This document shows positions 813-22,660 of a stretch of 64,000 nt of DNA, piece after piece. Position numbers and translations under genes: made by a program. The stretch comes from a bacterium (GTDB lineage: Bacteria > Patescibacteriota > Minisyncoccia > Phycocordibacterales > CAIZIN01): contig JBAXQO010000002.1 of assembly GCA_037131675.1 (NCBI GenBank), positions 15,166 through 79,165 of the forward strand, given 5' to 3'. The number at the start of each line of letters is the position of its first letter. The first letter of the stretch is position 1. The notes beneath the pieces are model-generated. The model did not search any database. It was not told the origin of the DNA and saw only the letters and a program-made list of their open reading frames with translations.

Positions 813-1247
813 ATGTTAATTGGCGAATACACACACAATTTTGATGATAAGAACCGAGTTTCGGTTCCTTCGAAATTCCGAAAGGAAATCGGAAAGAAAA
901 TTGTTGTAACTCGCGGACTCGACAATTGTTTGTTTATGTACACTCTCAAAGAATGGCAAAAGATTTCAGAAAAGCTTGGGGAGATGAGTATGCTCGCTTC
1001 TGACACTCGAGGTTTTAATCGTTTTATGCTCGCCGGTGCATCCGAGATTGATGTAGATGCAAACGGACGTGTTTTGATTCCAGAGTACCTTCGCGATTTT
1101 GCGAAGATCGAAGAAAAAGTTGTGTTCGCAGGTGTTCACAACCGTGTCGAACTTTGGAATGAGAATGCGTGGAATGAGTATAAAGAAAAGGTTGTAAAAC
1201 AGGCGGATGCTTTAGCTGAAAAGCTTGGGCAGGTCGGCGCGTTCTAA
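813..1247 (+). CDS. mraZ: transcriptional regulator MraZ
   Basis: 144 aa with duplicated MraZ/SpoVT-AbrB-like halves (DDKNRVSVPSKFR; DANGRVLIPEYLR). It is the first gene of the dcw cluster. Confidence 0.9.
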   Translation: MLIGEYTHNFDDKNRVSVPSKFRKEIGKKIVVTRGLDNCLFMYTLKEWQKISEKLGEMSMLASDTRGFNRFMLAGASEIDVDANGRVLIPEYLRDFAKIEEKVVFAGVHNRVELWNENAWNEYKEKVVKQADALAEKLGQVGAF

Positions 1248-1248
1248 T

Positions 1249-2133
1249 ATGCACATAAGTGTTCTTTTACATGAATCAATAGAGGGCTTAGAGCTCAAAG
1301 ACGGGGATGTTGTGTTTGACGGTACCTTTGGTGGTGGTGGGCATACACGGGCTATGCTTGCTCTTGGAAAAAAAATAAAAGTAATTGCAACCGATTTAGA
1401 CACGGATGCAATTGCAAATGGTCAAGAGCTTGTAAAAGAATACCCTGATCAACTTATTTTAGAAAACGATTCTTTTTCAAACATTGCTTCGATTCTAAAT
1501 AAACACAATTTTTCTGGTGTAGATAAAGTTTTGCTCGATTTAGGTTGGAGTTCAAACCAACTAGAAAATGGTGAAAGAGGACTTTCTTTTCTAAAAGACG
1601 AACCACTTGTAATGACTCTTAAAAAAGATATCACAGAATCTGATGTAACTGCTGAAATGATTGTAAACGAATGGGGTGAAGAAACCATTGCAGATATCTT
1701 ATTTGGTTTTGGAGAAGAACGTTACGCGCGCCGTATAGCAAGAGTAATCTGTGAAGAAAGACAAAAAAAACCAATCAAAACCACACATGAACTCGTCTCA
1801 ATTATTTCTAGAGCCGTGCCTCCTAATTACCGTTTTGGGAAGATCCATCCTGCAACTCGCACATTTCAAGCTCTTCGTATCGCAGTAAATCATGAACTTG
1901 AGACTTTAGAAACAGTTCTTTCTGAAGCGTGGAAAGTTTTAAAACCAGAGGGGAGGATGTCCATTATTTCATTTCATAGTCTTGAGGATCGCATCGTAAA
2001 AAGATTTTTCAGGGAAGTGGCAGCAGAGTCCAACGCAACAATAATCACAAAAAGACCAATAACTGCCAGTGAAGAAGAAATCTCATACAACCCACGTTCG
2101 CGAAGTGCAAAATTAAGAATTATTAAAAAATAA
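1249..2133 (+). CDS. rsmH: 16S rRNA (cytosine1402-N4)-methyltransferase RsmH
   Basis: SAM-binding GTFGGGGHT motif and ISFHSLEDRIVK motif. The ATG at 1249 lies 1 nt after the mraZ stop; the listed ORF begins at an upstream TTG. Confidence 0.9.
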   Translation: MHISVLLHESIEGLELKDGDVVFDGTFGGGGHTRAMLALGKKIKVIATDLDTDAIANGQELVKEYPDQLILENDSFSNIASILNKHNFSGVDKVLLDLGWSSNQLENGERGLSFLKDEPLVMTLKKDITESDVTAEMIVNEWGEETIADILFGFGEERYARRIARVICEERQKKPIKTTHELVSIISRAVPPNYRFGKIHPATRTFQALRIAVNHELETLETVLSEAWKVLKPEGRMSIISFHSLEDRIVKRFFREVAAESNATIITKRPITASEEEISYNPRSRSAKLRIIKK

Positions 2134-2146
2134 AAACCAAATCAAC

Positions 2147-2455
2147 ATGCAAACAAAAACCATTCGACACATATCACATATTCAGAAAGAAATATTCTGG
2201 GCTACAGCGGCAACTTTTATTGCTCTTGTTGGTTTGTATGTATTTTTCCTTGCCTCATCTATTGTGAATGTTGCTGTACGTCAGAATGTAAACGACAAAG
2301 TTGTGGCATTAAGTTCAAAGGTTGCACAGCTAGAATTTCAATATGTCTCTCTTCAAAACGCTGTTACGTCTGATGTGGCCACATCTGAAGGTTATGTCGC
2401 TCAAGCACCAGTTGCATATGTTGCAAAAGACATTCGTCTTTCTATGGCTCGATAG
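2147..2455 (+). CDS. ftsL: small single-TM protein in the FtsL position of the dcw cluster
   Basis: 102 aa with one N-proximal TM helix and a helical C-terminus. The call rests on conserved position between rsmH and the PBP gene, not on sequence motifs. Confidence 0.45.
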   Translation: MQTKTIRHISHIQKEIFWATAATFIALVGLYVFFLASSIVNVAVRQNVNDKVVALSSKVAQLEFQYVSLQNAVTSDVATSEGYVAQAPVAYVAKDIRLSMAR

Positions 2456-2463
2456 GATAATCT

Positions 2464-4170
2464 ATGAAAGATTTTTCGATTCTCAGAATTCGCATTCTTT
2501 CGATCACAATATTGTGTGTCGCGCTTTTGTTTATTTCGAAACTGTACATGATACAGGTTGTTCATTCTCAGGAATACCGAGATAGGGCAGACAGACAGTA
2601 CGTGCGTCCCAATCAGTCTGTTTTTGATCGAGGGACTATTTTTTTTGTTACAAAGGATAATGATCGTATTGCCGCTGCAACTCTTGAATCTGGATTTACT
2701 CTTGCAATAAACCCTAAACAAATTACAAACGATATTGATGTATATGAAAAAATAAATGCAATTCTACCTCTTGATAAAAATGATTTTTTAGCAAAAGCAG
2801 GAAAGAAGACTGATCCATACGAGGAGTTAGCGAAACATGTTGCTGATGATGTTGGTTTAAAAATTGATTCGCTCAAAATCCCAGGTGTGAGAATATATAA
2901 AGACCGATGGAGATTTTATCCTGGTAACACACTTGCTTCACAGGTTTTGGGCTTTCTGTCATTTAAAGGTAATGATCTTAAAGCTCAGTATGGGCTAGAA
3001 AGACAATACAATGAAGTTTTAAGTCGCAATACAGATGCTGTTTTTGCAAACTTCTTTGTTGAACTTTTTTCAAATATTAATAAAACAGTCCTTAAGAAAG
3101 AAGATTTAGAGGGAAGTATCGTGACAACTATTGACCCTGTTGTTCAAGGAACGCTGGAGAAAAAAATCGCAGATTTGCAGACACAGTATAAAAGTAAATT
3201 AACAGGAGGTGTCATAATGAATCCAAAGACGGGAGAAATCTACGCTATGGGTGCTTCTCCTTCATTTAATCCAAATACATATCAGACTGAGAAAAATATT
3301 TCATCATTCGGTAATCCTATAGTTGAGAATGTTTATGAAATGGGTTCGATTATTAAGCCTTTGACTATGGCAGCTGGTATTGATGCTGGAGTGGTGACTC
3401 CAGAAACAACTTATAAAGACGCTGGGTTTGTAACATTAAATAAATCTACTTTTTACAATTTTGATAAAAAGGGTAGAGGTGTGGTAAACATGCAAGAAGT
3501 GCTCAATCAGTCTTTAAATACTGGTGTAGCATTCGTCGTTTCAAAATTAGGTGATACAACATTTCGTAACTATATGTACGGATATGGTCTTTCGGAAAAA
3601 ACAGGTATTGATTTGCCAAATGAAGCAGACTCACTTGTGAAAAACCTAAAAAGTCCCAGAGAGATTGAATATGCAACCGCATCATTTGGACAAGGTATTG
3701 CACTTAGCCCTATACAAACAGTTCGTGCGCTTGCTTCTTTAGGCAATGGTGGTTTACTCGTAACTCCGCATGTGGTAAAGAGAATAGAATACCGTGTTGG
3801 AATATCTAGAGATATCTCATATCCAGAACCAAAAAAGGTTTTAAAACCAGAAACTAGTACGGCTATTACAAAAATGTTGGTAACGGTTTTCGATAAAGCT
3901 TTGCTTAATGGAAAGATAAAAATGGAACATTATTCAATGGCAGCAAAAACTGGTACGGCACAGATTGCTGATGGTCATGGTAAATATTTGGAAAATGATT
4001 ACCTCCATTCATTTTTTGGCTATTTCCCAGCGTACGATCCGAAGTTTATAGTGTTCCTGTTTACAGTTGAGCCTCAAGGTGTAGAATATGCTTCCCATAC
4101 CTTGGCAGAGCCATATAGTGATATTGCGAAGTTTTTAATAAATTATTATCAGGTACCGCCAGACAGATAG
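2464..4170 (+). CDS. ftsI: class B penicillin-binding protein (FtsI-like transpeptidase)
   Basis: N-terminal TM anchor plus transpeptidase motifs SIIKP (SxxK), SLN (SxN) and KTGTA. Confidence 0.85.
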   Translation: MKDFSILRIRILSITILCVALLFISKLYMIQVVHSQEYRDRADRQYVRPNQSVFDRGTIFFVTKDNDRIAAATLESGFTLAINPKQITNDIDVYEKINAILPLDKNDFLAKAGKKTDPYEELAKHVADDVGLKIDSLKIPGVRIYKDRWRFYPGNTLASQVLGFLSFKGNDLKAQYGLERQYNEVLSRNTDAVFANFFVELFSNINKTVLKKEDLEGSIVTTIDPVVQGTLEKKIADLQTQYKSKLTGGVIMNPKTGEIYAMGASPSFNPNTYQTEKNISSFGNPIVENVYEMGSIIKPLTMAAGIDAGVVTPETTYKDAGFVTLNKSTFYNFDKKGRGVVNMQEVLNQSLNTGVAFVVSKLGDTTFRNYMYGYGLSEKTGIDLPNEADSLVKNLKSPREIEYATASFGQGIALSPIQTVRALASLGNGGLLVTPHVVKRIEYRVGISRDISYPEPKKVLKPETSTAITKMLVTVFDKALLNGKIKMEHYSMAAKTGTAQIADGHGKYLENDYLHSFFGYFPAYDPKFIVFLFTVEPQGVEYASHTLAEPYSDIAKFLINYYQVPPDR

Positions 4171-4174
4171 AAAA

Positions 4175-5464
4175 ATGAAACAAATTTTAAAGAAAATAGT
4201 AATAGGAATTTTAACACTTGAAGCAAAGCTGGTGCTTAAGCGCTATAAACCAAAGATTATTGCTGTGACTGGAAGTGTTGGAAAAACTTCTACAAAAGAT
4301 GCAATTTACACAGCTTTATGTGAACCGTTTTCTATTCGTAAAAATCAAAAAAGTTTCAATAGTGAAATAGGAGTACCACTTACTGTTTTAGGTCTCGAGA
4401 ACGCATGGGGGAATCCTTTGTTGTGGGTTGGAAACATTTTAAAAGGTGCGTGGGTGTGTGTGTGGCCTCAAACATATCCAAAATTGCTGGTACTTGAAAT
4501 AGGGGCCGACCATCCAGGTGATATAAAATCCATTACAAAGTGGGTGATACCAGATATTGCAGTAGTAACCAGAATTCCAAATGTTCCAGTGCATGTTGAA
4601 TACTTTAAAGATGCAGAAGCTCTTCTTGAAGAAAAAGCAGAACTTTTAAAAGCTATGAAGCCGGATGGTGTAGCTGTAATTAATTCAGATGATGAAAATG
4701 TTCTTTCTCTTGGAAAACATGTGAAGGGAAGCGTTATTCATTATGGAATGGAAAATTCCGCCACAATTTACGGAGATTCTTATGGTCTTATGTACGAAGG
4801 AAATGATGTTGCGGGGATACAATTCAGAATTTTGTATGACTCCAATATAATACCTGTTGTGCTCAAAGGTATAGTTGGAGTACAGCATGTGTATCCTGTA
4901 CTTGCCGCTGCAGCAGTTGCTTTGCCTCTAAAATTACCCCTTGTTAAACTTACTGAATCTTTTGCACAACACGAATATCCACGGGGGCGTATGAATGTAA
5001 TAAAGGGGATTAAAAATACTATTATTATAGACGATACTTACAATTCCTCACCTGTAGCACTTGAATATGCTCTTCGTACTCTTAAAGATGTGCAGACTCA
5101 AGGAAGAAAAATTGCAGTGCTTGGAGATATGCTTGAGCTTGGTTCATATTCCGCTGAAGCTCATAAAAACATAGGAACAATCGCGGCGGAATGTGCAGAT
5201 ATTATTTTTACTGTAGGTGTGCGAGCTCGTGACATTAAAGATTTTGCTGTAAAAGCGGGAACACAAGAAACATCAACACAATCTTTTTCAAGTTCGGTAG
5301 AAGTGGGTGAATATTTAAAAGATTATATACAGGAAGGAGATGTTATACTCGCAAAAGGTTCACAAGGAATGCGTATGGAAAAATCTATTGCACCTATTGT
5401 GTTGGACCAAGAAAAAGTAAAAGATCTTCTGGTGAGACAAGAAAAAGAGTGGGTAGGAAGATAG
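4175..5464 (+). CDS. murF: UDP-N-acetylmuramoyl-tripeptide--D-alanyl-D-alanine ligase MurF
   Basis: Mur-ligase P-loop IAVTGSVGKTSTKD and the MurF-type C-terminal motif IIDDTYNSSP. Confidence 0.8.
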   Translation: MKQILKKIVIGILTLEAKLVLKRYKPKIIAVTGSVGKTSTKDAIYTALCEPFSIRKNQKSFNSEIGVPLTVLGLENAWGNPLLWVGNILKGAWVCVWPQTYPKLLVLEIGADHPGDIKSITKWVIPDIAVVTRIPNVPVHVEYFKDAEALLEEKAELLKAMKPDGVAVINSDDENVLSLGKHVKGSVIHYGMENSATIYGDSYGLMYEGNDVAGIQFRILYDSNIIPVVLKGIVGVQHVYPVLAAAAVALPLKLPLVKLTESFAQHEYPRGRMNVIKGIKNTIIIDDTYNSSPVALEYALRTLKDVQTQGRKIAVLGDMLELGSYSAEAHKNIGTIAAECADIIFTVGVRARDIKDFAVKAGTQETSTQSFSSSVEVGEYLKDYIQEGDVILAKGSQGMRMEKSIAPIVLDQEKVKDLLVRQEKEWVGR

Positions 5465-5594
5465 GTTCTTTATATACCCAATTTTCTAATTATCTTTCTT
5501 TTCTTTATATTTATCACAAATCATGTTGGCTGAGATACGTGCAGATTGGCCGGGGCCAACACCAACTATTAAATTTTAGGTTTCTTATCCATAA

Positions 5595-5795
5595 TTATTC
5601 TAGAGGACAAGTGTTTTTTCCAATAAAAGTATAAAACGCACACCAACTAACCAAGGATTCGTAAATAGAGAATATACCCAAGGCTATTAATACTATCTGC
5701 ATATAAATATTGTTAATAAAAAATACTGCGATAAGGGCAAGGATGCCTAAAAGTAATCTAAAAACCCGATCTTTTGTTCCAATATTCTTTTTCAT
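5595..5795 (-). CDS. small inner-membrane protein, DUF2892 (YgaP-like) type
   Basis: 66 aa with two TM helices and a C-terminal CxxYxxxGxxTCP-like motif. Confidence 0.45.
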   Translation of the reverse strand: MKKNIGTKDRVFRLLLGILALIAVFFINNIYMQIVLIALGIFSIYESLVSWCAFYTFIGKNTCPLE

Positions 5796-5954
5796 GTTGC
5801 TAATTATAATATAGATATAATTAATACGTAATAATAAATCGTTTGCTGAAAAATATCTCGAAGGCTTGATTTAAGCATATTTATCAGTAGTATTCTGCGC
5901 AGGCTAGAACAAAGCTGTTTTTGTTCTTTCATAAACTATATACAGGATAAACTT

Positions 5955-7382
5955 ATGCGTTATATTTCGACACGCGGTCAAGGTGGGTCGCTTTCTTTCA
6001 ATGATGTCTTGCTGGCTGGGCTGGCTCCTGATGGTGGGCTTTACGTTCCGGAGGAGTACCCGCAACTGGCATGGAAACATATTAAGCTGATGCAAGGCTG
6101 GAGCTATCATCAAATCGCATTCCACATCATTAAGCTTTTTGTCGGGGACGACATTAATGACAACGCTCTGCGAACGATCATTAAAAAAGCTTATGAACCT
6201 CGTCTGTTTGGTAGTCTCGACATTACACCAATACAACCTCTCTCAAGAGGTGTGGGTTTGCTGAAGTTGTCGAACGGGCCAACGTTGGCATTCAAAGATG
6301 TTGCGCTACAACTTCTCGCGAATCTCATGGACTATGTTCTTGAGGAGCGCGATGAATACCTTAACATTCTTGGTGCAACATCTGGTGACACTGGCTCGGC
6401 AGCAGAAGAAGCTGTGCGAGGTCGCAAGCGGTTGCGTATCTTCATGCTCTCGCCATATGGTCGCATGACTCCATTCCAGCAGATGCAAATGTATAGGATT
6501 CACGATCCAAGCGTTTTCAATCTGGTGCCGGATGGGAATTTTGATGATTGTCAGTCAGCAGTGAAGCTTGTGAACGCTGATTCCGATTTCAAGAGGGAAT
6601 ACTCAATCGGTGCGGTGAACTCAATCAACTGGGCACGTATCATGGCTCAAGTCGTGTATTACGTCTATGGGTACACACGGATGATAACAAGTCCGCATGA
6701 ACGCCTCACTGTTTCAGTGCCATCCGGCAATTTCGGCAATGCACTTGCTGCATATGTGGCGGGAAAGATGGGTCTCAAGATCGATATTATCGTAGCTACT
6801 AACGAGAACGATGTTCTGACTGAGCTTTTCAACTCGGGACGATATCGTATTCGTAAGGGCAATGAAGTTGTGAAAACGCAGAGTCCTTCAATGGACATTG
6901 CGTCGGCATCAAACTTCGAGCGGTTCATGTTCGATCAGGTGAATCGGGATCCTCGGCGTTTGGTAAAACTATGGAAAGAGCTTTCGGCTAAAGGTGAGTT
7001 CAGTTGGAATATACGGAACGAACCCGGCTCAACAGTTCGGTTTAGGTCAGGGACGGCGACTGATGCTGAAGTGACGAAGACCATAAAGTTAATCTTCGAT
7101 CACACCGGCATCATCATCGACCCACACACCGCGGTCGCTGCAAAGGTGTTCTATGATCTGAAAGGCGATTCCAATATGGGACCGTCCTTGATTGTAGAGA
7201 CAGCTCAACCAGCCAAGTTCGAGGATGCGATTTATCGTGCTCTCGGTATTAGGATGGCGATTCCTGAAGTGTGTCGTTACTTGGAAGGGAATGACGAGAG
7301 AATTATTCGTATTAATGAAACTGACCCAGTCGTAATTGCGAATGCGGCAAAAGCAATCATTGAAGCGAATGTGAAAAAATAA
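5955..7382 (+). CDS. thrC: threonine synthase
   Basis: PLP-lysine motif GPTLAFKDVALQ and a glycine-rich PLP-phosphate loop SGNFGNA. GC content (~47%) is markedly higher than the neighbours (~27-35%). Confidence 0.85.
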   Translation: MRYISTRGQGGSLSFNDVLLAGLAPDGGLYVPEEYPQLAWKHIKLMQGWSYHQIAFHIIKLFVGDDINDNALRTIIKKAYEPRLFGSLDITPIQPLSRGVGLLKLSNGPTLAFKDVALQLLANLMDYVLEERDEYLNILGATSGDTGSAAEEAVRGRKRLRIFMLSPYGRMTPFQQMQMYRIHDPSVFNLVPDGNFDDCQSAVKLVNADSDFKREYSIGAVNSINWARIMAQVVYYVYGYTRMITSPHERLTVSVPSGNFGNALAAYVAGKMGLKIDIIVATNENDVLTELFNSGRYRIRKGNEVVKTQSPSMDIASASNFERFMFDQVNRDPRRLVKLWKELSAKGEFSWNIRNEPGSTVRFRSGTATDAEVTKTIKLIFDHTGIIIDPHTAVAAKVFYDLKGDSNMGPSLIVETAQPAKFEDAIYRALGIRMAIPEVCRYLEGNDERIIRINETDPVVIANAAKAIIEANVKK

Positions 7383-7404
7383 AAAATATCACCGAAACAA
7401 TAAG

Positions 7405-7440
7405 CCCATCAGCCTTCGTGTTGATGGGTTTTTATTTATT
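7405..7440 (+). terminator. rho-independent terminator after thrC
   Basis: Stem cccatca / tgatggg with a 10-nt loop, followed by tttttatttatt. Confidence 0.6.
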
Positions 7441-7552
7441 TTATTAATTGTAACACGATAATTTTATGTCATATAATTTCTCTCGAAACTATTACCGATG
7501 TATACTTAACCTCAACGATATAATGATAGTAATAAATAAAAAATAAATTAAT

Positions 7553-9046
7553 ATGATAAAGAAAAAAGTGGTTGTAATCGGTGCTGGACTAGGTGGAATA
7601 TCTGCAGCAGCGTCACTTGCATCAAAAGGTTATGATGTAGAAATTTTTGAGAAAAACTCACATGTTGGTGGCAAGCTAAATCTATTAAAAAAAGATGGTT
7701 TTTCATTTGATCTCGGTCCTTCTATTTTGACCTTGCCACACTTGTTCCAAAAGTTGTTTGATGAGGCTGGTAAAAAAATGGAAGACTATGTTTCTATACA
7801 ACCACTCCGTCCACACTGGAGGAATTTCTTTGAAGATGGGATTGTAATTGATTTAACTCCAGATATGAAGGAGATGAAATTATCTAACCCAACACTAAGT
7901 AATCAAGATATTGTAGAGCTTGAAAAATATCTGGAGTATTCAAAGGGACTTTATGATTTTGCCGAGAGGGGTTATTTTAAAGCTGGTCTGGATACGTTAT
8001 GGGAAGTAATTACTTTTTACAACCCATTTTCTCTTTTAAAAAGTGTAAATATTTTTTCTACACTCCACGAAAAAACCCATAAATATATCAGCAATTCGTA
8101 TCTCCAAACCATAATGGACTTTTTTATTAAATATGTCGGATCATCCGCATACAATGCTCCAGCTATTCTTGGTCTTTTGGCACATGTACAATTTAAATAT
8201 GATCTATGGTATGTAGATGGGGGCTTATACAATCTTGCAAAAGGCTTGGAGAAATTACTTCTAGACATAGACGTTAAAATTCACCTTAATAGCGAAATTG
8301 TGAAACTAGAAAAAAATGGCGGAAAAATAATAAGAGCACTGCTTGCATCCGGTGAATATGTTGAAGCTGATATTTTCATTTCGGACATGGAGATTATTCC
8401 TGCTTATCTAAAATTAACCAATGAACCAGCAGATTTTATTGCTACATACGAAAAGAAGTTTGAACCAGCTTGTTCAGGGCTTGTATTGTATCTAGGTGTT
8501 GATCGAGAATATCCACAGTTGGCACATCATAATTTTTTCTTCTCTCAAAATCCAAAAGAACATTTTAGATCTGTGTTCGATAAAAAAATATTACCTGACG
8601 ATCCTACTATATATCTTGTAGCTCCTGCTCGAACTGATAAATCTCAGGCTCCAGCCGGTTGTGAGAACATAAAGATACTTCCTCATATTCCATACCTACA
8701 AGACAAGCCTTTTACTGCAAAAGATTATTCAGATTTGCGTGATCGCGTATTGATTAAATTAGAAAAAATGGGTCTTACAGATCTTCGTAAGCATATTATT
8801 ACTGAAGACATGTGGACACCTGAAGATATTGAGAAAAATTATTATTCAAATAGGGGTGCTATCTATGGTGTAGTTTCTGATAAAAAGAAAAATTTGGGAT
8901 TTAAGGCTCCAAAGGAAAGTACACTTTATAAAAATCTTTACTTTGTTGGAGGTAGTGTAAATCCTGGAGGAGGAATGCCGATGGCTGTGCTTTCAGGACA
9001 ACAAGTTTGTGATAAAATTATAAAAAAATATGGAGAACAAAAATAA
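7553..9046 (+). CDS. FAD-dependent oxidoreductase, phytoene desaturase (CrtI/CrtN) family
   Basis: N-terminal Rossmann fold VVVIGAGLGGISAA...EKNSHVGGK and a GPS motif; about 500 aa, typical of the CrtI family. Confidence 0.7.
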   Translation: MIKKKVVVIGAGLGGISAAASLASKGYDVEIFEKNSHVGGKLNLLKKDGFSFDLGPSILTLPHLFQKLFDEAGKKMEDYVSIQPLRPHWRNFFEDGIVIDLTPDMKEMKLSNPTLSNQDIVELEKYLEYSKGLYDFAERGYFKAGLDTLWEVITFYNPFSLLKSVNIFSTLHEKTHKYISNSYLQTIMDFFIKYVGSSAYNAPAILGLLAHVQFKYDLWYVDGGLYNLAKGLEKLLLDIDVKIHLNSEIVKLEKNGGKIIRALLASGEYVEADIFISDMEIIPAYLKLTNEPADFIATYEKKFEPACSGLVLYLGVDREYPQLAHHNFFFSQNPKEHFRSVFDKKILPDDPTIYLVAPARTDKSQAPAGCENIKILPHIPYLQDKPFTAKDYSDLRDRVLIKLEKMGLTDLRKHIITEDMWTPEDIEKNYYSNRGAIYGVVSDKKKNLGFKAPKESTLYKNLYFVGGSVNPGGGMPMAVLSGQQVCDKIIKKYGEQK

Positions 9047-10532
9047 AGAGAAAATAATAATAGTAGGTGCGGGTCCGGGTGGACTTTCTGCTGGTATGCT
9101 TCTAGCTCACCAAGGTTTTGATGTTCATGTTTTTGAAAAAGAATCTACTCCAGGAGGTCGTTCAAGACAGCTTGTACTTGGAGAATATAAATTTGATTAT
9201 GGTCCAACTTTTTTTATGATGGATTTTGTTGCTCGTGAGATATTCAAACAAACAGGTAGAAATTTAGAAGACTATGTTACCTTGTCTCGACTCTCTCCTA
9301 TGTATAAACTTCTATTTGCAGATAAACAAATAGATGTCTATGAAGAAGACGAAAAGATGATGGAAGAACTAGCGAAAGTATTTCCAGGTGAAGAAGAAGG
9401 ACTTCCACTATTTAATCAAAAGGAAAAGAAGAGACTTGAGTATCTTTATCCTATATTAGCTCGGAACAACAACAATATTTTCGATGCATTACGTCCTAGT
9501 TTTTTACGTACGTTACCATATTTTGCTATTGGTAGGACACTATTTCAAGTGTTGGGTAAATACTTCAAGCAACCAGAAGCCCGCCTATGCTTTACGTTCC
9601 AATCTAAATATCTTGGCATGTCTCCATGGGAATGTCCGGGTGCGTTTGCGATGGTTCCTTATGTTGAACAACAATTCGGAATTTATCATGTGAAAGGTGG
9701 TCTTTCAGAAGTAGCTTCTGCAATGGCAAAAGTTGTTACAGAAGAAGGAGGTAATATTCACTATAATTCAAAAATAAAAGAAATTATTGTTGAAGGAAAA
9801 ACTGCAAAAGGTGTCGTGCTTGAAAATGGTGAACGTGTTATGGGGGATAAGGTTATCATCAATGCAGACTTTGCTTATGCAATGAACAACTTATTACCAA
9901 AAGGAAAACTTAAGAAATATTCACCATCCAACCTCGCAAAGAAAAAGTATTCCTGCTCAATATTTATGCTTTATCTTGGGGTGAAAAAACAATACAATCT
10001 AAATCACCACACTATCGCTTTTGCTAAAGACTATGAAAAGAACGTCGGAGACATATTTCATGGAAGACTTACTGATAAAGATTTCTCGGTGTATGTTCGT
10101 GATGCAAGTAAAACTGATTCAACATTGTCACCAGAAGGAAAATCAGGGCTTTACGTTCTTGTTCCAGTACCAAACAATCAATCAGGAATCGACTGGAAAA
10201 CACAATCTAAAATCCTTCGTGAACAAACTCTAGATATTTTAGAAAAGAGATTCGGTCTTACTGACATTAGGGAAAATATTGAAGTTGAAAAAATCCTTAC
10301 ACCTGCTGATTGGGAAAATGACTTTAATGTTCAGTATGGTGCGGTATTTAATTTAGGACATCAACTACGACAGATGCTTTGGTTTCGTCCACACAATCAA
10401 TTTGAAGAGTTGAAAAATGTTTACTTAGTGGGTGGTGGGACGCATCCAGGTAGTGGATTGCCTACTATTTACGAGTCTGGTCGCATAGTAGCAAATCTTA
10501 TTTCAAAGAGTTTGAATAATAAAAAAGATTAA
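9030..10532 (+). CDS. FAD-dependent oxidoreductase, phytoene desaturase (CrtI/CrtN) family, second paralogue
   Basis: IIIVGAGPGGLSAG...EKESTPGGR and a GPTFFMM motif. It overlaps the upstream paralogue by 17 nt. Confidence 0.7.
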   Translation: MENKNKEKIIIVGAGPGGLSAGMLLAHQGFDVHVFEKESTPGGRSRQLVLGEYKFDYGPTFFMMDFVAREIFKQTGRNLEDYVTLSRLSPMYKLLFADKQIDVYEEDEKMMEELAKVFPGEEEGLPLFNQKEKKRLEYLYPILARNNNNIFDALRPSFLRTLPYFAIGRTLFQVLGKYFKQPEARLCFTFQSKYLGMSPWECPGAFAMVPYVEQQFGIYHVKGGLSEVASAMAKVVTEEGGNIHYNSKIKEIIVEGKTAKGVVLENGERVMGDKVIINADFAYAMNNLLPKGKLKKYSPSNLAKKKYSCSIFMLYLGVKKQYNLNHHTIAFAKDYEKNVGDIFHGRLTDKDFSVYVRDASKTDSTLSPEGKSGLYVLVPVPNNQSGIDWKTQSKILREQTLDILEKRFGLTDIRENIEVEKILTPADWENDFNVQYGAVFNLGHQLRQMLWFRPHNQFEELKNVYLVGGGTHPGSGLPTIYESGRIVANLISKSLNNKKD

Positions 10533-10637
10533 CGTTACTGAATTTAAACACATACTTTTAAAAATTACTTTAGTATTTTTGGTTAAGTTAAATTCCCGTA
10601 AGGGATGCTAAATTCTGGTAACAAAAAAGACTTAAAA

Positions 10638-10671
10638 TTAACCCTTCTCGTGCTAGCACGAGAAGGGTTAA
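10638..10671. terminator. 34-bp perfect palindrome, a probable bidirectional terminator hairpin
   Basis: ttaacccttctcgtgct | agcacgagaagggttaa forms a perfect 17-bp-arm palindrome, preceded by an A-run and followed by tctgttattctt. Confidence 0.45.
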
Positions 10672-10721
10672 TCTGTTATTCTTACAGACATTGAACTTTT
10701 GTCGGATTAAGTTTTTATCTA

Positions 10722-11837
10722 ATGGAATCAAAAAAACATATATTAATTTCTGCATTTTTTGTTACGGCTGTTTTGTTTGTTTGCGTTTTTTCGTCTATTA
10801 GTAAACCATATTCACTTGGGTCATATTTCAGTAACAAAATTATCAATTCTCAATTATTAGCACCCAAAAAAGACCCCCTCGGAAATGTTCTATATAAAGG
10901 AACGATTTATCATATTTTCTTTCATAGTCTAATCGTATATCCAGAGCTTGCATTTAATGGTAATAAAAACCAAGGTTTGTATGAAAACTATATGATCACT
11001 CGGGATGAATTTAATAAAATCCTGCCTGAATTATATAAAAATAATTTTGTTTTAATTGATATAAATTCAATTTACAAGATAAATAAAGACGGAACTGTTG
11101 TTAGGAAACCGATTTATATTCCAAAAGGCAAAAAACCATTAATCATTTCTATTGATGACCTTTCGTATTATAGAGGAATGCAAGGACATGGTTTTGCAAA
11201 TAAACTTGTGCTAGATGAAAATGGAAATGTGGCTACGGAAGTTATTACACCAAAAGGTGAGACTGTAGTCACTCACGATGGCGATGTTGTTCCGATTCTA
11301 GATGCTTTTGTTGCAGATCATCCAGATTTCTCAATGGGCGGTGCAAAGGGTACGATTGCGCTCACTGGGTATGAAGGGGTTCTTGGTTATCGTACTGAGG
11401 CAACGACTTCTAAAAGCTATTTACAAGATATTCAATCGGCAAAAAATATAATTGATAAGTTGAAATCAACCGGTTGGAGTTTTGCAAGTCATAGTTACTC
11501 ACATGATCAATCTTTTATAAACAAAACTATTTCTCTTGAGAATCTTAAAAAAGACTCTGAACGGTGGGATAGGGAGGTAAAACCTTTGGTGGGGGATACA
11601 AATATTTTTATTGGTCCTTTTGGGCAGGTTTTCAGTCAAGGTGATCCACGTCGAGCGTATCTGGTCTCGAAAGGTTTCAAAGTTTTGTGTGGAGTTGGTG
11701 TAAATCCATATCTTCGCTATTTTTCTGATTATGTCGCAATGGATAGAGCGGATATTGACGGCTATCGGTTCAGTCATACTGCCAACCTTTTAAAGACGTA
11801 TTTTGATCCGAAGGTTACTGTAGATAGTAGGAAATAA
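10722..11837 (+). CDS. polysaccharide deacetylase (NodB-like) family membrane-anchored protein
   Basis: N-terminal TM helix; NodB motifs IISIDDLSYY (motif 1) and FASHSYSHD (His-His motif). Confidence 0.6.
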   Translation: MESKKHILISAFFVTAVLFVCVFSSISKPYSLGSYFSNKIINSQLLAPKKDPLGNVLYKGTIYHIFFHSLIVYPELAFNGNKNQGLYENYMITRDEFNKILPELYKNNFVLIDINSIYKINKDGTVVRKPIYIPKGKKPLIISIDDLSYYRGMQGHGFANKLVLDENGNVATEVITPKGETVVTHDGDVVPILDAFVADHPDFSMGGAKGTIALTGYEGVLGYRTEATTSKSYLQDIQSAKNIIDKLKSTGWSFASHSYSHDQSFINKTISLENLKKDSERWDREVKPLVGDTNIFIGPFGQVFSQGDPRRAYLVSKGFKVLCGVGVNPYLRYFSDYVAMDRADIDGYRFSHTANLLKTYFDPKVTVDSRK

Positions 11838-11857
11838 AATAAACAGTGGTTTATTTT
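11836..11857. terminator. AT-rich hairpin between convergent genes
   Basis: aaaataaac-agtg-gtttatttt is a perfect 9-bp stem flanked by A/T runs. Confidence 0.4.
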
Positions 11858-11869
11858 ATTTGTTTCAGA

Positions 11870-13093
11870 CTATCTAAATATTTGGCGCTGTAGTGAAAGA
11901 TAAGTTGCTACTATTATTCCCACAAACCCTAGAGCAATGAATGAATGCGCAAATCCTAGATATTGCGCCATATACCCACCAACAATAGGCCCTCCTGTGT
12001 CACCAAAATTTGTAAATAGATCCTGAAGGGTTTCTGTTTCTTTTCGAAGGGTTGGAGTTTTTTCAATGTATTCTGCGTACATGGCGTTTATGGCTGGCCA
12101 ACCTATTGCAAAGAAAAATGATGCAATAAAGATTGAAAAAACCAAAAGGATAGGTGAAGTTATAAAACCAACAATAACAAGAATGATCGAGCCGAGTGCG
12201 ATTGATCCATGAGCTGTATGTATGTTTCCAAATTTTCTAGCAACAAAACCAACACTCCATCCTACGAGAATTGGAGGAAGTGCATAGGCTGTCATAAACA
12301 CACCTCCAGGTATGTTGTTTACTGATCCGAAATTTTCTGAAAACAATGGACCAAAAGTCCAAATTGCTGCATCTAAAAGATTAATGATGAGTGTGAGTAA
12401 TAAGATGGGGAAAATGGTTGACCAGATATTTTTCCAAAGACTGATTTCTTTAAAAAAACTAAGTGCATCTTTTCGGGCTACCCCAGAGTATTCCTTTCTT
12501 TCTGTAGAAGAATGTCTGATTCTAATATAAAAGAAGAAAGAGATAATAAGCGGTATTGATAAAACAAGAATCATTTTTGGTCCTGGATGTACAATGAGAA
12601 GAAGTAAGCTGCCCAGAAAAGGAGCAATAAAATATCCTAATCCTTCAAATGAACGAAGAATACCAAAATTAGATGTGTGTTGTTCTGGGTTATTTGTGCG
12701 TTCAACAAAATCAAGTGTGCCAATGTTGTAGAAATTATAATAAAACCCCCACACAGCCATTGTGAGAAAATAAATAGTTACGGTATTTCCACCAAACAAA
12801 AAGATTGGGAATAACATTGAGAGAACGAACATAAAAAGAAACATGCTTCTGTAATGTGTTGATTTGAGCGTTCTACACAGGATGATATCAAAAAGCATTC
12901 CAGCTATTGATGATGATCCCAGTATGAGACCCATAAGACTTTCAGAAATTCCTGAGTTGGAAATTGTAATGGGGGAAAGATACATGAGTATCCCGTCAAA
13001 AATTACGAAAAAGAAAACCATCATCCCCGCTGTGAAGATTTTAGAATTTATTCTGTGTTTAGAAACCTCAGATTGAAGCCTGTGAAGTATCAT
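11870..13093 (-). CDS. MFS transporter (12-TM)
   Basis: 407 aa with about 12 hydrophobic segments and an MFS-like loop motif region. Confidence 0.7.
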   Translation of the reverse strand: MILHRLQSEVSKHRINSKIFTAGMMVFFFVIFDGILMYLSPITISNSGISESLMGLILGSSSIAGMLFDIILCRTLKSTHYRSMFLFMFVLSMLFPIFLFGGNTVTIYFLTMAVWGFYYNFYNIGTLDFVERTNNPEQHTSNFGILRSFEGLGYFIAPFLGSLLLLIVHPGPKMILVLSIPLIISFFFYIRIRHSSTERKEYSGVARKDALSFFKEISLWKNIWSTIFPILLLTLIINLLDAAIWTFGPLFSENFGSVNNIPGGVFMTAYALPPILVGWSVGFVARKFGNIHTAHGSIALGSIILVIVGFITSPILLVFSIFIASFFFAIGWPAINAMYAEYIEKTPTLRKETETLQDLFTNFGDTGGPIVGGYMAQYLGFAHSFIALGFVGIIVATYLSLQRQIFR

Positions 13094-13097
13094 TTAT

Positions 13098-13373
13098 TTA
13101 TTGTCCAATTGGTCTAGGAGAGCTTGGCGGATTATTAGGGTCTATGAGAGGGGCACTAAGTATTTTTTCTTTAAGAGCCACTTTCTTGGCTGATTTCTTT
13201 GCGATTTTCTTTGCCTTCTTTTTTACAACTGGTTTTTTGACTGTTTTGTGTTTTTTAACTAATGCTTTGGAAATTGTTTTTGGAGTAGACGTTGCTGAGG
13301 CAAGTACTACGAAAGGACTAGAACTTATAAAAAAGGCTATGAGCACAAAAGCTAAAATTGTTATTTTTTTCAT
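13098..13373 (-). CDS. small secreted lysine-rich (histone-H1-like tail) protein
   Basis: The internal Met gives the signal peptide MKKITILAFVLIAFFISSSPFVVLASA, then the repeats KKHKTVKKPVVKKKAKKIAKKSAKKVALKEK. The longer ORF from 13499 lacks a signal-peptide start. Confidence 0.45.
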   Translation of the reverse strand: MKKITILAFVLIAFFISSSPFVVLASATSTPKTISKALVKKHKTVKKPVVKKKAKKIAKKSAKKVALKEKILSAPLIDPNNPPSSPRPIGQ

Positions 13374-13615
13374 GATTGCAATTATAACATAGAGCATGAA
13401 TGAGTTCGATTCCTCGAAGGGTGCTAGTTTTTTGATACTAAAAAGGCTTGATAATAAGCTTTTTCGTGCTAGTAGGGGTTGATGGTGTTTCGTTGACATT
13501 TAAATCCTCAAGAGTAATATCGCGAATGGTTCTACTTGATGGATACGTCTTGAAAAGTAGAGTTCATTAAATAAAAACCGCGTATATACGCACAACAAAG
13601 AAAGGAAACGAGATT

Positions 13616-14200
13616 ATGGATACGTCCAACACATCTCAATCGTCAGTCAATGCAGCAGACTTCCTGGTGGAAGTTGAGAGAAAACTCAGGAAAAACTTCA
13701 AGGACTTGCCATTCAAGAGGCTCGGGGACTACCTTGGGGTTTTCGAAAAGATGCTCGATCGACGTTACCATTTTTCTTATGGTCGCACGATCGGTTCCTT
13801 GAATCAGTCTCTTGATGATATGGTATTTGTAATACCAATAATCGAGACACCCACCACCTATCGGAACGGTTCCTTGAAGAGGTTGGAGGTGGTGCAGTTG
13901 GTTCTTGAGAGGAGGCTTTGTGGGGGAGAACATGGTTGTTGGAACATACATAGGGCAAAATTTGTTCAGGTATATCCAGACACTATTCCTACAGAGTTTA
14001 ATTCCTCGAGTTCCTCAATTACTTCATGTCATAGTCCTCATGAATTTAAGGTGGAGCTTGTCAGGATTAAATTGCCCCCCAACTTTACCGAAATGGTAAA
14101 TTCTGCCATTTGTAAATGGATAGAGAATTCCATCGAAAAAAGGCGACAGACGAATCAGTCGCTCGGAAAGCTCAAAGGAGAGTTTTCAACAAAGAAATAA
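13616..14200 (+). CDS. hypothetical protein in a GC-elevated block
   Basis: 194-aa ORF with RBS aaaggaaacgagatt. GC is roughly 48%, with shadow ORFs on the opposite strand typical of higher-GC DNA. It has its own terminator. Confidence 0.5.
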   Translation: MDTSNTSQSSVNAADFLVEVERKLRKNFKDLPFKRLGDYLGVFEKMLDRRYHFSYGRTIGSLNQSLDDMVFVIPIIETPTTYRNGSLKRLEVVQLVLERRLCGGEHGCWNIHRAKFVQVYPDTIPTEFNSSSSSITSCHSPHEFKVELVRIKLPPNFTEMVNSAICKWIENSIEKRRQTNQSLGKLKGEFSTKK

Positions 14201-14217
14201 TTCCTTTTTACAATACC

Positions 14218-14257
14218 AAAACCCTTGTCGTGAAAGCGACAAGGGTTTTTATTTTTT
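14218..14257 (+). terminator. rho-independent terminator
   Basis: aaacccttgtcg-tgaaag-cgacaagggttt followed by a T-run. Confidence 0.7.
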
Positions 14258-14285
14258 AAGACTATTTAATTTATTAGTTGTTGAA

Positions 14286-14359
14286 GGTGACCTTACGGGG
14301 AATCGAACCCCGATTTAAGCCTTGAGAAGGCTCCGTCCTAACCGTTAGACGATAAGGCC
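14286..14359 (-). tRNA. tRNA-Glu (anticodon CUC)
   Basis: Hand-folded cloverleaf: acceptor GGCCTTA/TAAGGTC, D-arm GTCT..GGAC, anticodon stem GAGCC/GGCTT with loop TTCTCAA, and T-arm CGGGG-TTCGATT-CCCCG. Discriminator A and CC are encoded. A TATAAT -10 lies about 11 bp upstream on the minus strand. Confidence 0.85.
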
Positions 14360-14454
14360 AATACGAGGCATTATAGAGTAAGGGGAAGAAAAAATCTAGT
14401 CTTTATTTGGGTTAGGTGATTGCTCAGGGATTTGCTTGGTGGTAAAATCCACCA

Positions 14455-15078
14455 ATGAAGAATACAACTAAAAAACCTACTAAAAAGGTGGTAAAGGAAG
14501 ATTTGACTTCCACTGCAGATTTTTTATTCGAAGCAGGAATGTTGGCTAAAACTCCAAGAAGTTGGGCTGGTTTTTTGGGAAGCGGTGACCAGAGTGTTGC
14601 AGAGCATACAAACCGTACAACATATATTGGGTTTGTTTTGTCGCATATGATAAAAGGTGTGGATGTGGCAAAGGTTGTGCAGATGTGTATGTTTCATGAT
14701 TTTTCTGAAGCACGAATTTCAGACTTGAATTATGTTCATCAAAAATATACAGAAAGATTAGAGCATAAAGCATTAGAAGATTTGGTGGCTAGTGTTCCTT
14801 TTGGGCAATCAATCAAAGCTATCATAGAAGAATATGAGGAAAGAAAAACTTTGGAATCGATTGTTGCAAAAGAAACGGATAACCTTGAATTTATCCTTAC
14901 TCTAAAAGAACAAAAAGACGCAGGTAACGAGCGTGCAGCTTCATGGATTCCATCTGCTGTTAAAAGACTAAAACTAAAAGAGTCCCAAGCTCTTGCTGCT
15001 ACGATTATAAAAACAGAATCTGATCATTGGTGGTTTGGTGATAAGGGTGATGAGTGGTGGGTAAGTAGGAATAAGTAA
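14455..15078 (+). CDS. HD-domain phosphohydrolase (YfbR-like 5'-deoxynucleotidase family)
   Basis: H...HD signature: AEHTNR ... MFHDFSEARISD. Confidence 0.7.
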   Translation: MKNTTKKPTKKVVKEDLTSTADFLFEAGMLAKTPRSWAGFLGSGDQSVAEHTNRTTYIGFVLSHMIKGVDVAKVVQMCMFHDFSEARISDLNYVHQKYTERLEHKALEDLVASVPFGQSIKAIIEEYEERKTLESIVAKETDNLEFILTLKEQKDAGNERAASWIPSAVKRLKLKESQALAATIIKTESDHWWFGDKGDEWWVSRNK

Positions 15079-15180
15079 TGTCCATTGTTTGTTGCAAGCT
15101 TTTCACTTGGGGTTATTGGTTCTTGGTTGGTTCTAATCTTGAAACTTATCTATAAATAGTTTTTGTGAGATAATAAACAT

Positions 15181-15774
15181 ATGATTGTCGTTGATGTTGA
15201 GACAACCGGTGTGGACCCAGATCGTCACTCGATAGTATCTATCGGTGCGGTGGATTTTTTGCATCCAGAAAGGAGGTTTTATGAGGAGTGTCGGATATGG
15301 GACGGTGCAATCATTTCTGATGAAGCGCTTGCAATAAATGGTTATACTCGTGAAGAAGTTACTGATATTAAAAAACAAAGCCTTGAAGAAATATTAAAAA
15401 AATTCTTTATGTGGGTTGAGGAGAGCGAGGGGCATACAATAATGGTTCTCCATCCAATTTTTGATTTATCTTTTTTAGATGAGAGCGCTGAGCGATACCA
15501 CCTACAACTTCCTTTTCCGAAACGTTCACTCGATTTACATTCGATTTGTTTTGCTCATATGATTAAAGGCGGTCTTATTCCACCTATTATAAATAAACAC
15601 AGTGCTGTAAATTCTGATCTAATAATGCAATATGTGGGAATTCCAACAGAACCAAAACCTCACATTGCTCTCAATGGCGCTCTCTATGAAGCCGAGGCAT
15701 TTAGTCGGCTTCTGTATGATAAAAACCTTTTGCCAGAATTTGCGGAATATCCCTTACCTTGGTTAAAAAGGTAA
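15181..15774 (+). CDS. DEDD-family 3'-5' exonuclease (DnaQ-like)
   Basis: Exo I VVDVETTG and Exo II HPIFDLSFL motifs. The Exo III region reads HIALNGALYE. Confidence 0.65.
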   Translation: MIVVDVETTGVDPDRHSIVSIGAVDFLHPERRFYEECRIWDGAIISDEALAINGYTREEVTDIKKQSLEEILKKFFMWVEESEGHTIMVLHPIFDLSFLDESAERYHLQLPFPKRSLDLHSICFAHMIKGGLIPPIINKHSAVNSDLIMQYVGIPTEPKPHIALNGALYEAEAFSRLLYDKNLLPEFAEYPLPWLKR

Positions 15775-15813
15775 GTTTGAAGATGTTTAAAAACCTGATA
15801 TAGTATACAAACT

Positions 15814-16035
15814 ATGTGGAATTTTATAATGAAACAAGCGATGAAATCGCAATTAAAAAATGTGCCAAAGGATCAGCAGGAAAAAATAATGGCTCTTATT
15901 GATAAAAATCCTGAATTTTTTACACAGCTTGCAGAAAAGATTAAGAAGAAAGTTGATAGTGGGAAACCTCAGATGGCGGCTGTGATGGAGGTGATGCAGG
16001 AAAATAAAGAAGAATTGCAGAAAATGATGAGGTAA
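15814..16035 (+). CDS. small Met/Lys-rich helical protein, hypothetical
   Basis: 73-aa ORF in operon position between the exonuclease and the flavodoxin-like gene. Confidence 0.4.
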   Translation: MWNFIMKQAMKSQLKNVPKDQQEKIMALIDKNPEFFTQLAEKIKKKVDSGKPQMAAVMEVMQENKEELQKMMR

Positions 16036-16054
16036 AAGAACGCTCAATATAGCC

Positions 16055-16131
16055 TTTCTGGAACACGAAAATTTTTTACTAAAAATTTTCTCTGTCCGCT
16101 GCCGTTGGTACAAGACCACTTCTTGTTTCCT
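16055..16131 (+). repeat. copy A of a ~76-nt repeated intergenic element
   Basis: The 44-nt core tttctggaacacgaaaattttttactaaaaattttctctgtccg matches the reverse complement of 33935-33979 at 42/44. Both copies end in a GTTTCCT-containing tail, and the core contains a 10-bp AT hairpin gaaaattttt/aaaaattttc. Confidence 0.6.
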
Positions 16132-16211
16132 AATTCGTTTCACTTATAAGTAAACAAAGTCGCGCAGCTACCAAGTTTCCATAAAGGGTATATTTCGCTA
16201 TAATGGTAGAT

Positions 16212-16787
16212 ATGAAAAAAATTTTTATATTACTTGGCCACCCAAATAACGAGGATACTTTTAATAAATCTCTTGCTGATGCATATGAGAAAGGTGCAAA
16301 GGAGGCTGGTCACGAGGTGAGGAGAATGAACTTAGGTGATATGCAGTTCGACTCAGTTTTACATAAGGGATATAAAGTAATTCAGCAACTTGAGCCAGAT
16401 CTTTTGGTGTTTCAAGAAAATATAAAATGGTGCGAACATTTTGTTGTAATATACCCAACCTGGTGGACTTCTATGCCTGCTCAGCTCAAGGGTCTTTTTG
16501 ATCGAGCTTGGATTTCTGGTTTTGCCTTTAGATTCAAGCCGAGTGGTTTGTGGAGTAAACTTCTCGTTGGGCGATCTGCTCACGTATTTACAACCATGGG
16601 TGCTCCTGCAATTGCTGAGTGTTTTTTCTTTGGTAATGTAACTCGTTTGCTTAAAAATAATTTATTAAAATTTGCTGGATTTTCTCCTGTTTGCGCAACA
16701 TGGATAGGGAACGCAGAAAAAATGAAAATTGAAAAGCGACAGAGGTGGTTTGCGAAAATGGAAAAGCTGGGAAGGGGAGGAAAATAA
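16212..16787 (+). CDS. flavodoxin-like fold NAD(P)H-dependent oxidoreductase (NQO1/Flavodoxin_2 family)
   Basis: MKKIFILLGHPNNEDTFNKSLADAY is the typical N-terminus of the family. A TATAAT lies at 16197-16202. Confidence 0.65.
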   Translation: MKKIFILLGHPNNEDTFNKSLADAYEKGAKEAGHEVRRMNLGDMQFDSVLHKGYKVIQQLEPDLLVFQENIKWCEHFVVIYPTWWTSMPAQLKGLFDRAWISGFAFRFKPSGLWSKLLVGRSAHVFTTMGAPAIAECFFFGNVTRLLKNNLLKFAGFSPVCATWIGNAEKMKIEKRQRWFAKMEKLGRGGK

Positions 16788-16793
16788 AAAGAA

Positions 16794-16820
16794 AAGACCA
16801 ACGGATTGAACGCTGGTCTT
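16794..16820. terminator. hairpin between convergent genes
   Basis: aagacca-13 nt loop-tggtctt. Confidence 0.45.
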
Positions 16821-16825
16821 ACTGT

Positions 16826-17377: not shown

Positions 17378-17494
17378 AAGCCACCTCCTTTCTATTGGTT
17401 AAGGTTCAATTTTCTACTAATAAAACTATATCACATTTTTTGTATTTAATCAAATCATTTCAAAAAAAATGAATTTAAGGTATTATTCCCATCT

Positions 17495-18592: not shown

Positions 18593-18600
18593 TTGAAACC

Positions 18601-21625: not shown

Positions 21626-21627
21626 AT

Positions 21628-22650: not shown

Positions 22651-22660
22651 TTTAATTTAA

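Follow-up and report, generated by a model that had tools for sequence, protein, structure and literature searches.

thrC, the gene for a threonine synthase, stands alone in a 64,000-nt stretch of contig JBAXQO010000002.1 (hereafter the window), where it forms a compact unit of about 1.58 kb together with its flanking signals. Taken together, our results make it fairly probable that this unit is a stand-alone accessory gene encoding a canonical enzyme, which would have been acquired laterally within the Patescibacteria before the window's lineage split from that of its sister genome L092, then exchanged among relatives and partly ameliorated in composition. UvrB from the window shares 72-76% identity with proteins annotated as Paceibacterota, Taylorbacteria, Parcubacteria or "Patescibacteria group", and by its proteins the host is a Paceibacteria-like bacterium of the candidate phyla radiation (CPR, or Patescibacteria). 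Bacteria of this group are generally considered to obtain most of their building blocks from other cells. The gene content of the 64 kb fits the assignment, with lower glycolysis, peptidases, repair functions, many genes of unknown function and no amino-acid biosynthesis other than thrC.

The identity of the gene, already proposed in a preliminary description of the window, is borne out by family, domain and structure comparisons. The whole protein scores 221.4 bits against TIGR00260, the NCBIfam equivalog model of thrC (cut-off, 167.1), and the Pfam domains PF14821 (Thr_synth_N, 98 bits) and PF00291 (PALP, 47 bits) both exceed their gathering scores, with a weak match to PF24857 (THR4_C, 21 vs 27). 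The precomputed domains of all close homologues display the same Thr_synth_N, PALP and THR4_C architecture. Residues 1-450 align to the solved structures 3v7n (E 2e-122), the threonine synthase of Burkholderia thailandensis, and 4f4f, followed by more distant matches to yeast 1kl7, 8g1y and E. coli 1vb3. The window protein shares the domain architecture and length class of the class-II enzymes (3v7n, 4f4f, yeast Thr4 1kl7 and E. coli ThrC 1vb3), from which it differs in that its C terminus extends about 25 residues past the part that aligns with the solved structures. The motifs GPTLAFKD, GATSGDTGSAA, NSINWAR and SGNFGN are identical or nearly identical in all five structures; we assigned their roles from general knowledge of the family, GPTLAFKD being presumably the motif of the lysine that carries pyridoxal phosphate (PLP). 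Judged from its sequence, the enzyme is intact and kept by purifying selection, with a ratio of nonsynonymous to synonymous divergence (dN/dS) of 0.089 relative to L092 (dN 0.051, dS 0.575), and it most likely catalyses the canonical PLP-dependent conversion of O-phospho-L-homoserine into L-threonine and phosphate. The related copy in L085 carries an in-frame TAG at positions 5522-5524 that cuts the last 28 codons, past which the sequence still reads as the conserved C-terminal tail up to about position 5608; this codon could be a true nonsense mutation, a sequencing error or the mark of a dispensable tail.

The base composition sets thrC apart from its surroundings. In sliding windows, the GC content is 0.46-0.48 exactly over positions 6000-7400, compared with 0.32-0.39 before and 0.32-0.35 after. 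The gene has a GC of 0.474 and a GC at third codon positions (GC3) of 0.487, the corresponding values being 0.375 and 0.230 for murF upstream and 0.346 and 0.239, then 0.361 and 0.246, for the two CrtI-family genes downstream. The contrast pointed out in the preliminary description therefore stands for thrC itself, at about 47%, although the flanks have to be placed at 35-38% rather than 27-35%. Among all 63 open reading frames (ORFs) of the window, thrC is fourth in GC3 (z = 2.1 relative to the 62 others), and it is an extreme outlier relative to the 24 other genes that encode 300 aa or more (z = 5.2 for GC3 and 4.2 for GC), the means for these long genes being 0.383 for GC and 0.285 for GC3. 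The opposite-strand shadow ORFs mentioned in that description are present (Table 1).

The offset extends to the related loci. The GC of thrC and the mean of its neighbouring genes are 0.474 and 0.385 in the window, 0.489 and 0.371 in L085, 0.518 and 0.426 in L006, 0.524 and 0.436 in L090, 0.545 and 0.427 in L088, 0.516 and 0.498 in L086, and 0.551 and 0.510 in L005; thrC is likewise GC-richer than its neighbours in L092 and in L094-L097. The lowest GC3 values of thrC (0.49-0.52) are found in the hosts of lowest GC, a trend that fits partial amelioration from a GC-richer ancestor. Polarised synonymous changes in thrC comprise 53 from strong to weak bases (S>W) and 34 from weak to strong (W>S; p = 0.053), mostly on the window's branch, which is only suggestive of an ongoing loss of GC. 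Indeed, the same procedure applied to native genes returned an impossible equilibrium, which we ascribe to parsimony bias, the outgroup being distant and AT-rich; the ratio of S>W to W>S changes per site is 1.3 both in thrC and in these control genes.

Four other ORFs of the window are also rich in GC3: 38216-39007 (minus strand, 0.55), 54869-55504 (minus strand, 0.54), 46836-47567 (plus strand, 0.46) and 13616-14200 (plus strand, 0.48). One of them is adenylate-kinase-like, and the other three match nothing in Pfam or PHROG. In L173 and L175, the backbone position of 13616-14200 is filled by orthologues that are GC3-rich too (0.41-0.48 across relatives), so that a high GC3 need not indicate foreign origin in these genomes. 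The native mraZ gene (813-1247) is GC3-rich in all relatives as well (0.39-0.45), and its dS relative to L173 is 0.40 in a comparison where most genes are saturated, which hints at constraint on its nucleotide sequence.

The boundaries of the unit were defined by nucleotide comparison with L092 and L085, the two genomes located through their ThrC; four further host relatives, L172-L175, were located through MurF (71-79% identity). The blastn blocks over thrC run from window position 5865 to 7441 or 7442 in both comparisons (85.6% identity with L092 and 82.6% with L085), and the DNA immediately outside is unrelated, even in the sister genome. Such sharp edges would fit a cassette moving as a unit. 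Its putative promoter keeps the position of both hexamers in relatives down to 66% ThrC identity, a range over which the G..CTTT motif of the leader and the terminator stem are found again as well. Because it falls below the threshold of a consensus scan (8 of 12 matches), we infer this promoter from its conservation only; a scan match near the start codon (5939-5966) was disregarded since it overlaps the ATG. We compared the leaders of the window, L092, L085, L086, L090, L005, L006, L088, L094 and L096. An alignment of the leader region has invariant G..CTTT and promoter columns, and in most relatives CCTTTCA lies at a constant spacing from the promoter, just after a hairpin of varying sequence. 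The leader has no match in Rfam, even at E values up to 10, RNAalifold found 0 consensus pairs, and single-sequence folds are no better than shuffles, with non-significant z-scores. A riboswitch or attenuator is therefore unsupported by any of these approaches, and what is conserved are sequence motifs only. At the other end of the unit, a terminator scan found the gene's own terminator, as the preliminary description had stated, and its stem, GCCCAYCAGC...GTTGGTGGGC, is kept in L092, L085, L090, L005, L094, L095 and L096.

The unit lies in an interval, from murF to a tRNA-Glu gene, whose content differs in every genome compared. On its left, the dcw (division and cell wall) block has the same gene order in the relatives, its proteins being 92-98% identical to those of L092 and 57-97% identical to those of L172-L175, and a class-II aminoacyl-tRNA synthetase gene precedes it in all seven genomes, as does greA in L172-L175. 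In all seven, the block mraZ-mraW-ftsL-ftsI-murF ends at murF whether thrC is present or not, which contradicts the earlier view that thrC interrupts the dcw cluster. On the right, tRNA-Glu(CTC) is found at the equivalent backbone position in L085, L173 and L175; of the backbone spanning window positions 14286-19029, tRNA-Glu, RNase_T and YchF are present in L173 and L175, and HD_3, flavodoxin and NUDIX genes also in L173. Between these anchors, thrC was found in three arrangements: murF-ygaP-thrC-crtI in the window, murF-ham1-thrC-parB in L092 and DUF378-thrC-ham1-tRNAGlu in L085. In L092, ham1 takes the place of the YgaP-like ORF between murF and thrC, with no homology there. In L085 (MurF 65% identical), murF is followed by five unrelated genes and then by thrC-ham1-tRNA-Glu-HD_3, so that ham1, 87% identical in nucleotide sequence between L092 and L085, lies on opposite sides of thrC in the two genomes. 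Downstream of thrC, L092 harbours a GC-rich ParB-like gene, which also matches phage ParB families, and a sigma-70-family gene (9893-11624), suggesting that its interval carries cargo derived from mobile elements. No thrC occurs within 10 kb 3' of murF in L172-L175, which have the backbone in common with the window, and none of the ThrC homologue matches lies on the 337-kb contig of L172.

Divergence of the genes on both sides of the interval points to distinct histories. Relative to L092, the dS of thrC (0.575) is the highest of seven genes, the six flanking genes ranging from 0.16 to 0.55. Since the sister genome holds thrC in the same place at this divergence, the gene would have been present before the two lineages split, and its acquisition was not recent. 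Relative to L085, murF is saturated (dS 1.69; dN 0.29), with a dS of 0.79 for thrC and of 0.77 for HD_3 (dN 0.03). Relative to L173, the order is reversed, with a dN of 0.15 for murF and 0.25 for HD_3. Compared with L173, L085 is thus twice as far from the window by MurF and eight times closer by HD_3. This test is local, confined to MurF, HD_3 and thrC rather than set against a full species tree. Because the same gene gives opposite orderings across taxa, rate variation offers no explanation, and the thrC-to-HD_3 side appears to have been exchanged after the backbone diverged.

To place the donor, for which the preliminary description had suggested a ThrC phylogeny, we built a neighbour-joining tree of 149 non-redundant sequences with 100 bootstraps, rooted with the E. 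coli, 8g1y, yeast and 4f4f enzymes, an unrooted version having been uninformative on deep relationships. The nearest homologues of the window ThrC are metagenome proteins (66-91% identity), followed by proteins named Kaiserbacteria or Parcubacteria (about 52-55%) and then by Betaproteobacteria (45-51%); dozens of the relatives at 66-91% come from CPR contexts. The window protein belongs to a 28-taxon clade (bootstrap 99) within a 67-taxon clade (85), every named member of which is CPR. The sister group, of 78 taxa (88), consists mostly of Betaproteobacteria and includes 3v7n; the two clades are joined at 100%. The closest relatives are thus CPR and the nearest non-CPR ones reach at most 51%; the search for a donor therefore seems to point inside the CPR, the link with Betaproteobacteria being probably ancient. 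The horizontal acquisition proposed earlier is in this respect only partly upheld: the four empty sites, the incongruent histories and an insertion footprint in L088 argue for it, while the donor does not look foreign to the CPR and the event does not look recent.

That footprint is an 84-nt direct repeat with one copy on either side of thrC (L088 positions 127-210 and 1899-1982, 85% identity). Of the two copies, the downstream one, located between the thrC terminator and a tRNA-His gene, is a piece of the ORF that stands intact upstream, and the repeat looks like the trace of a single-crossover insertion. The same fragment is found 3' of thrC in L005 and L006. In L005, L088, L090 and L097, tRNA genes are found 142-306 nt away from thrC, and putative mobility genes occur in three other genomes: a large serine recombinase beside thrC in L090, an rve transposase in L088 and ParB in L092. 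The closest thrC relatives share the murF to tRNA-Glu interval, and the distant ones sit elsewhere. Across the CPR clade, the gene is always solitary and GC-richer than its host, in mostly different neighbourhoods and often adjoining a tRNA gene. Among viral contigs of IMG/VR, no relative of the window thrC was found; matches in phage records are at most 37% identical and those in plasmids at most 50%, all of the latter being ordinary proteobacterial thrC genes. The locus resembles tRNA-associated genomic islands in its atypical GC, its interval of varying content bounded by tRNA-Glu, its patchy presence and the mobile-element cargo (the ParB-like gene) of the sister's interval. It differs from them by the lack of an integrase, att-like repeats or mobile-element genes in the window's interval, and because the unit shared between CPR genomes is a single gene and not an island. 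Within the 133-aa ORF of the interval, a 19-mer (13404-13422) resembles, in inverted orientation, the 3' part of the T-arm and acceptor of tRNA-Glu (14290-14308), located 870 nt away, with 16 of 19 positions complementary; it could be due to chance or be a relic of an old integration.

The partners expected for a threonine synthase are missing from the window, as first described. No ORF long enough for homoserine dehydrogenase (Hom, about 440 aa) or homoserine kinase (ThrB) matches those families in the 64 kb, and a hidden Markov model built from Hom retrieved nothing in any frame. The betaproteobacterial enzymes, which are 45-51% identical to that of the window and form a separate clade, are usually encoded just after hom: in this sister clade, hom immediately precedes thrC in 79 of 111 loci and is nearby in 23 more. 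By contrast, thrC stands alone, with a putative promoter and a terminator of its own, in the window and in 15 loci of the CPR clade, none of which has a Hom-like ORF. The nearest parallel is Trypanosoma brucei, reported (PMC4460637) to retain just the last two steps, homoserine kinase and threonine synthase, and to supply them with homoserine that it scavenges. There too, a dependent organism has kept the final part of threonine synthesis and not the earlier steps of the aspartate pathway, and by this logic a scavenging role is plausible for the window enzyme; the trypanosome has the kinase, which was not found in the window, and its route was tested experimentally, so that the likeness is one of logic only. 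The simplest guess is that a kinase encoded elsewhere in the genome would act on scavenged homoserine. A full-text literature search returned no paper discussing threonine synthase, or a lone thrC, in CPR bacteria.

How else could a GC-rich thrC have come to lie in this genome? An assembly or binning chimera, in which a GC-rich piece of another organism was fused into a low-GC contig, would account for the abrupt GC step, the sole point in its favour. Since four separately assembled contigs (L001-L004; one from Logan, two from ENA and one from JGI) match the window at 100% identity through both thrC junctions, and the same module is found in low-GC contexts in the related genomes L092 and L085, we rejected this explanation, whose probability is negligible. 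Recent import from a GC-rich donor outside the CPR, such as a betaproteobacterial neighbour or host, was implied in the preliminary description. The compositional contrast would agree with it, as would the rank of Betaproteobacteria as nearest non-CPR relatives and of 3v7n as best solved structure, yet it is very improbable: betaproteobacterial ThrCs are 45-51% identical and fall in a clade (88) separate from that of the CPR (85), dozens of relatives from CPR contexts are far closer (66-91%), thrC was in place before the split from L092 (dS 0.58), and the hom gene to which thrC is coupled in the sister clade did not come along. A native, vertically inherited thrC, its high GC being due to gene-specific selection and its patchiness to repeated loss, deserves more credit and is still unlikely. 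It would explain why thrC exceeds its host in GC at all the CPR loci examined, whatever the GC of the host, why clearly native genes (mraZ and the orthologues of 13616-14200) are persistently GC3-rich too, why the sister genome has thrC at the same site and why all named clade members are CPR. It does not sit well with the four relatives that are closer than L085 by MurF and lack thrC at the site, L085 having it, nor with the incongruence of HD_3 and thrC with murF, the insertion footprint in L088 and the different neighbourhood of every distant relative; moreover, strong codon selection should reduce synonymous divergence, and the dS of thrC (0.575) is the highest of the seven genes. We therefore favour lateral acquisition from another, GC-richer patescibacterium, which would have predated the split from L092 and been followed by recombination between relatives, exchanging the side of the interval that runs from thrC to HD_3, and by a slow, still incomplete amelioration of the gene's composition.

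Several observations weigh against lateral acquisition and exchange. No integrase, transposase or recombinase was detected by Pfam or PHROG among the ORFs of the window's interval, and no convincing direct repeats flank the module or the interval, only short ones at chance level; the mobility of the module is thus deduced here from comparison and not directly seen. Sharp edges would also arise if selection kept a transcription unit while its surroundings turned over. thrC is never GC-poorer than its host in the CPR loci measured, a one-sided offset unlike that predicted from random exchange among hosts of varied GC, which leaves room for selection on the composition of the gene itself. The polarised test of GC loss is marginal and biased by parsimony, and the dS comparisons are soft, as the dS of backbone genes varies widely, from 0.4 to saturated. 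The tree is a neighbour-joining one on a biased sample, in which most members of the CPR clade are metagenome proteins without a taxon name, and a small set of sequences named Kaiserbacteria is placed in the sister clade dominated by Betaproteobacteria. Finally, the absence of hom and thrB covers 64 kb and not the whole genome. This last point also bears on function. The enzyme might no longer be a threonine synthase in vivo and instead act as another PLP enzyme (a phospho-lyase or deaminase) or moonlight, which would explain its persistence without hom and thrB; the vertebrate ThrC-like protein THNSL2, a phospho-lyase or deaminase, would be a model for such a change. Scavenging of O-phosphohomoserine and moonlighting, both raised in the preliminary description, are speculative, and the active-site motifs are what one would expect of an ordinary ThrC. 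The specific arguments are limited to the missing partners, in the 64 kb and as Hom-like ORFs in the 15 CPR-clade loci, and to a precedent, a moonlighting role reported for a cyanobacterial ThrC (PMC12172450); the L085 copy, otherwise conserved and shortened by 28 residues, would also be compatible. We judge an altered function to be improbable, given a TIGR00260 score above the equivalog cut-off, the retention of all motifs common to four solved threonine synthases, a dN/dS of 0.09 and an absence of the upstream pathway established only for part of the genome. A bolder extension of lateral acquisition, speculative and on balance doubtful, would make the thrC cassette an autonomous "metabolic patch" that circulates in Patescibacteria by homologous or tRNA-proximal recombination, with no mobility genes of its own, and is retained because it turns host-derived homoserine or O-phosphohomoserine into threonine in these host-dependent cells, its leader (the hairpin and CCUUUCA) being a regulatory element not described so far.

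As a single locus, this is a well-documented but ordinary case of gene transfer within a phylum; the solitary arrangement throughout the clade is of modest interest. A whole CPR clade seems to keep a threonine synthase that is intact, selected, solitary, laterally exchanged and uncoupled from hom, which would point to a specific metabolic dependency and raises the question of which precursor is taken up, and from whom. The locus also illustrates the turnover of accessory genes in small genomes, in a variable interval adjacent to a tRNA gene and devoid of obvious mobile-element machinery.

Table 1 Features of the thrC locus (window coordinates)
Feature	Position	Strand	Description	Evidence
thrC	5955..7382	+	475 aa, class-II (E. 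coli-yeast type) threonine synthase	ORF, TIGR00260, Pfam
thrC module	5865..7442	+	Sole DNA of the variable interval common to window, L092 and L085	blastn
Putative promoter	5866..5893	+	-35 TTGATT (5866-5871), 16-nt spacer, -10 TAGTAT (5888-5893)	Read from sequence
Leader	5894..5954	+	About 60 nt; hairpin 5906-5927, CTTTCA 5926-5931, Shine-Dalgarno AGGA 5944-5947	
Intrinsic terminator	7402..7441	+	12-bp stem, then T-run	Terminator scan (hairpin and T-run 7402-7431)
Shadow ORF	5904..6236	-	Non-gene, wholly inside the GC-rich thrC frame	Mechanical ORF list
Second shadow ORF	6665..6928	-	Non-gene, wholly inside the thrC frame	Mechanical ORF list
dcw block (left anchor)	813..5464	+	mraZ, mraW, ftsL-like, ftsI, murF	Pfam
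Hypervariable interval	5465..14285		murF to tRNA-Glu: YgaP-like ORF, thrC, two CrtI-family genes, 371-aa ORF, MFS transporter, 133-aa ORF, 194-aa ORF	Comparison of relatives
YgaP-like membrane protein ORF	5595..5795	-	66 aa; outside the thrC module	Pfam PF11127 (E 7e-18)
tRNA-Glu(CTC) (right anchor)	14286..14359	-	3' end toward the variable interval	ARAGORN, Rfam

Other features of the region are summarised here. Directly 3' of thrC, two CrtI-family (phytoene desaturase-like) genes are arranged in tandem (7553-10532); in its variable interval, L173 has a counterpart of the second one only, with 91% identity. Between this second gene and the 371-aa ORF lies a perfect 36-nt palindrome (10637-10672; 18 + 18 nt, no spacer), which may act as a terminator in both directions or serve to bind a protein. 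The aminoacyl-tRNA synthetase gene upstream of the dcw block (21-662; 327-1793 in L092) is 98% identical between the window and L092 and about 33% identical to the gene in the same slot in L172-L175 (4987-6447 in L173), where a different paralogue of the Asp/Asn/Lys type seems to be present. Beyond the right anchor lies a compact metal-handling cluster (19364-23074), in which two of the products carry an HMA domain, namely a P-type ATPase and a membrane protein of the DsbD_2 family, and a third is cupredoxin-like.

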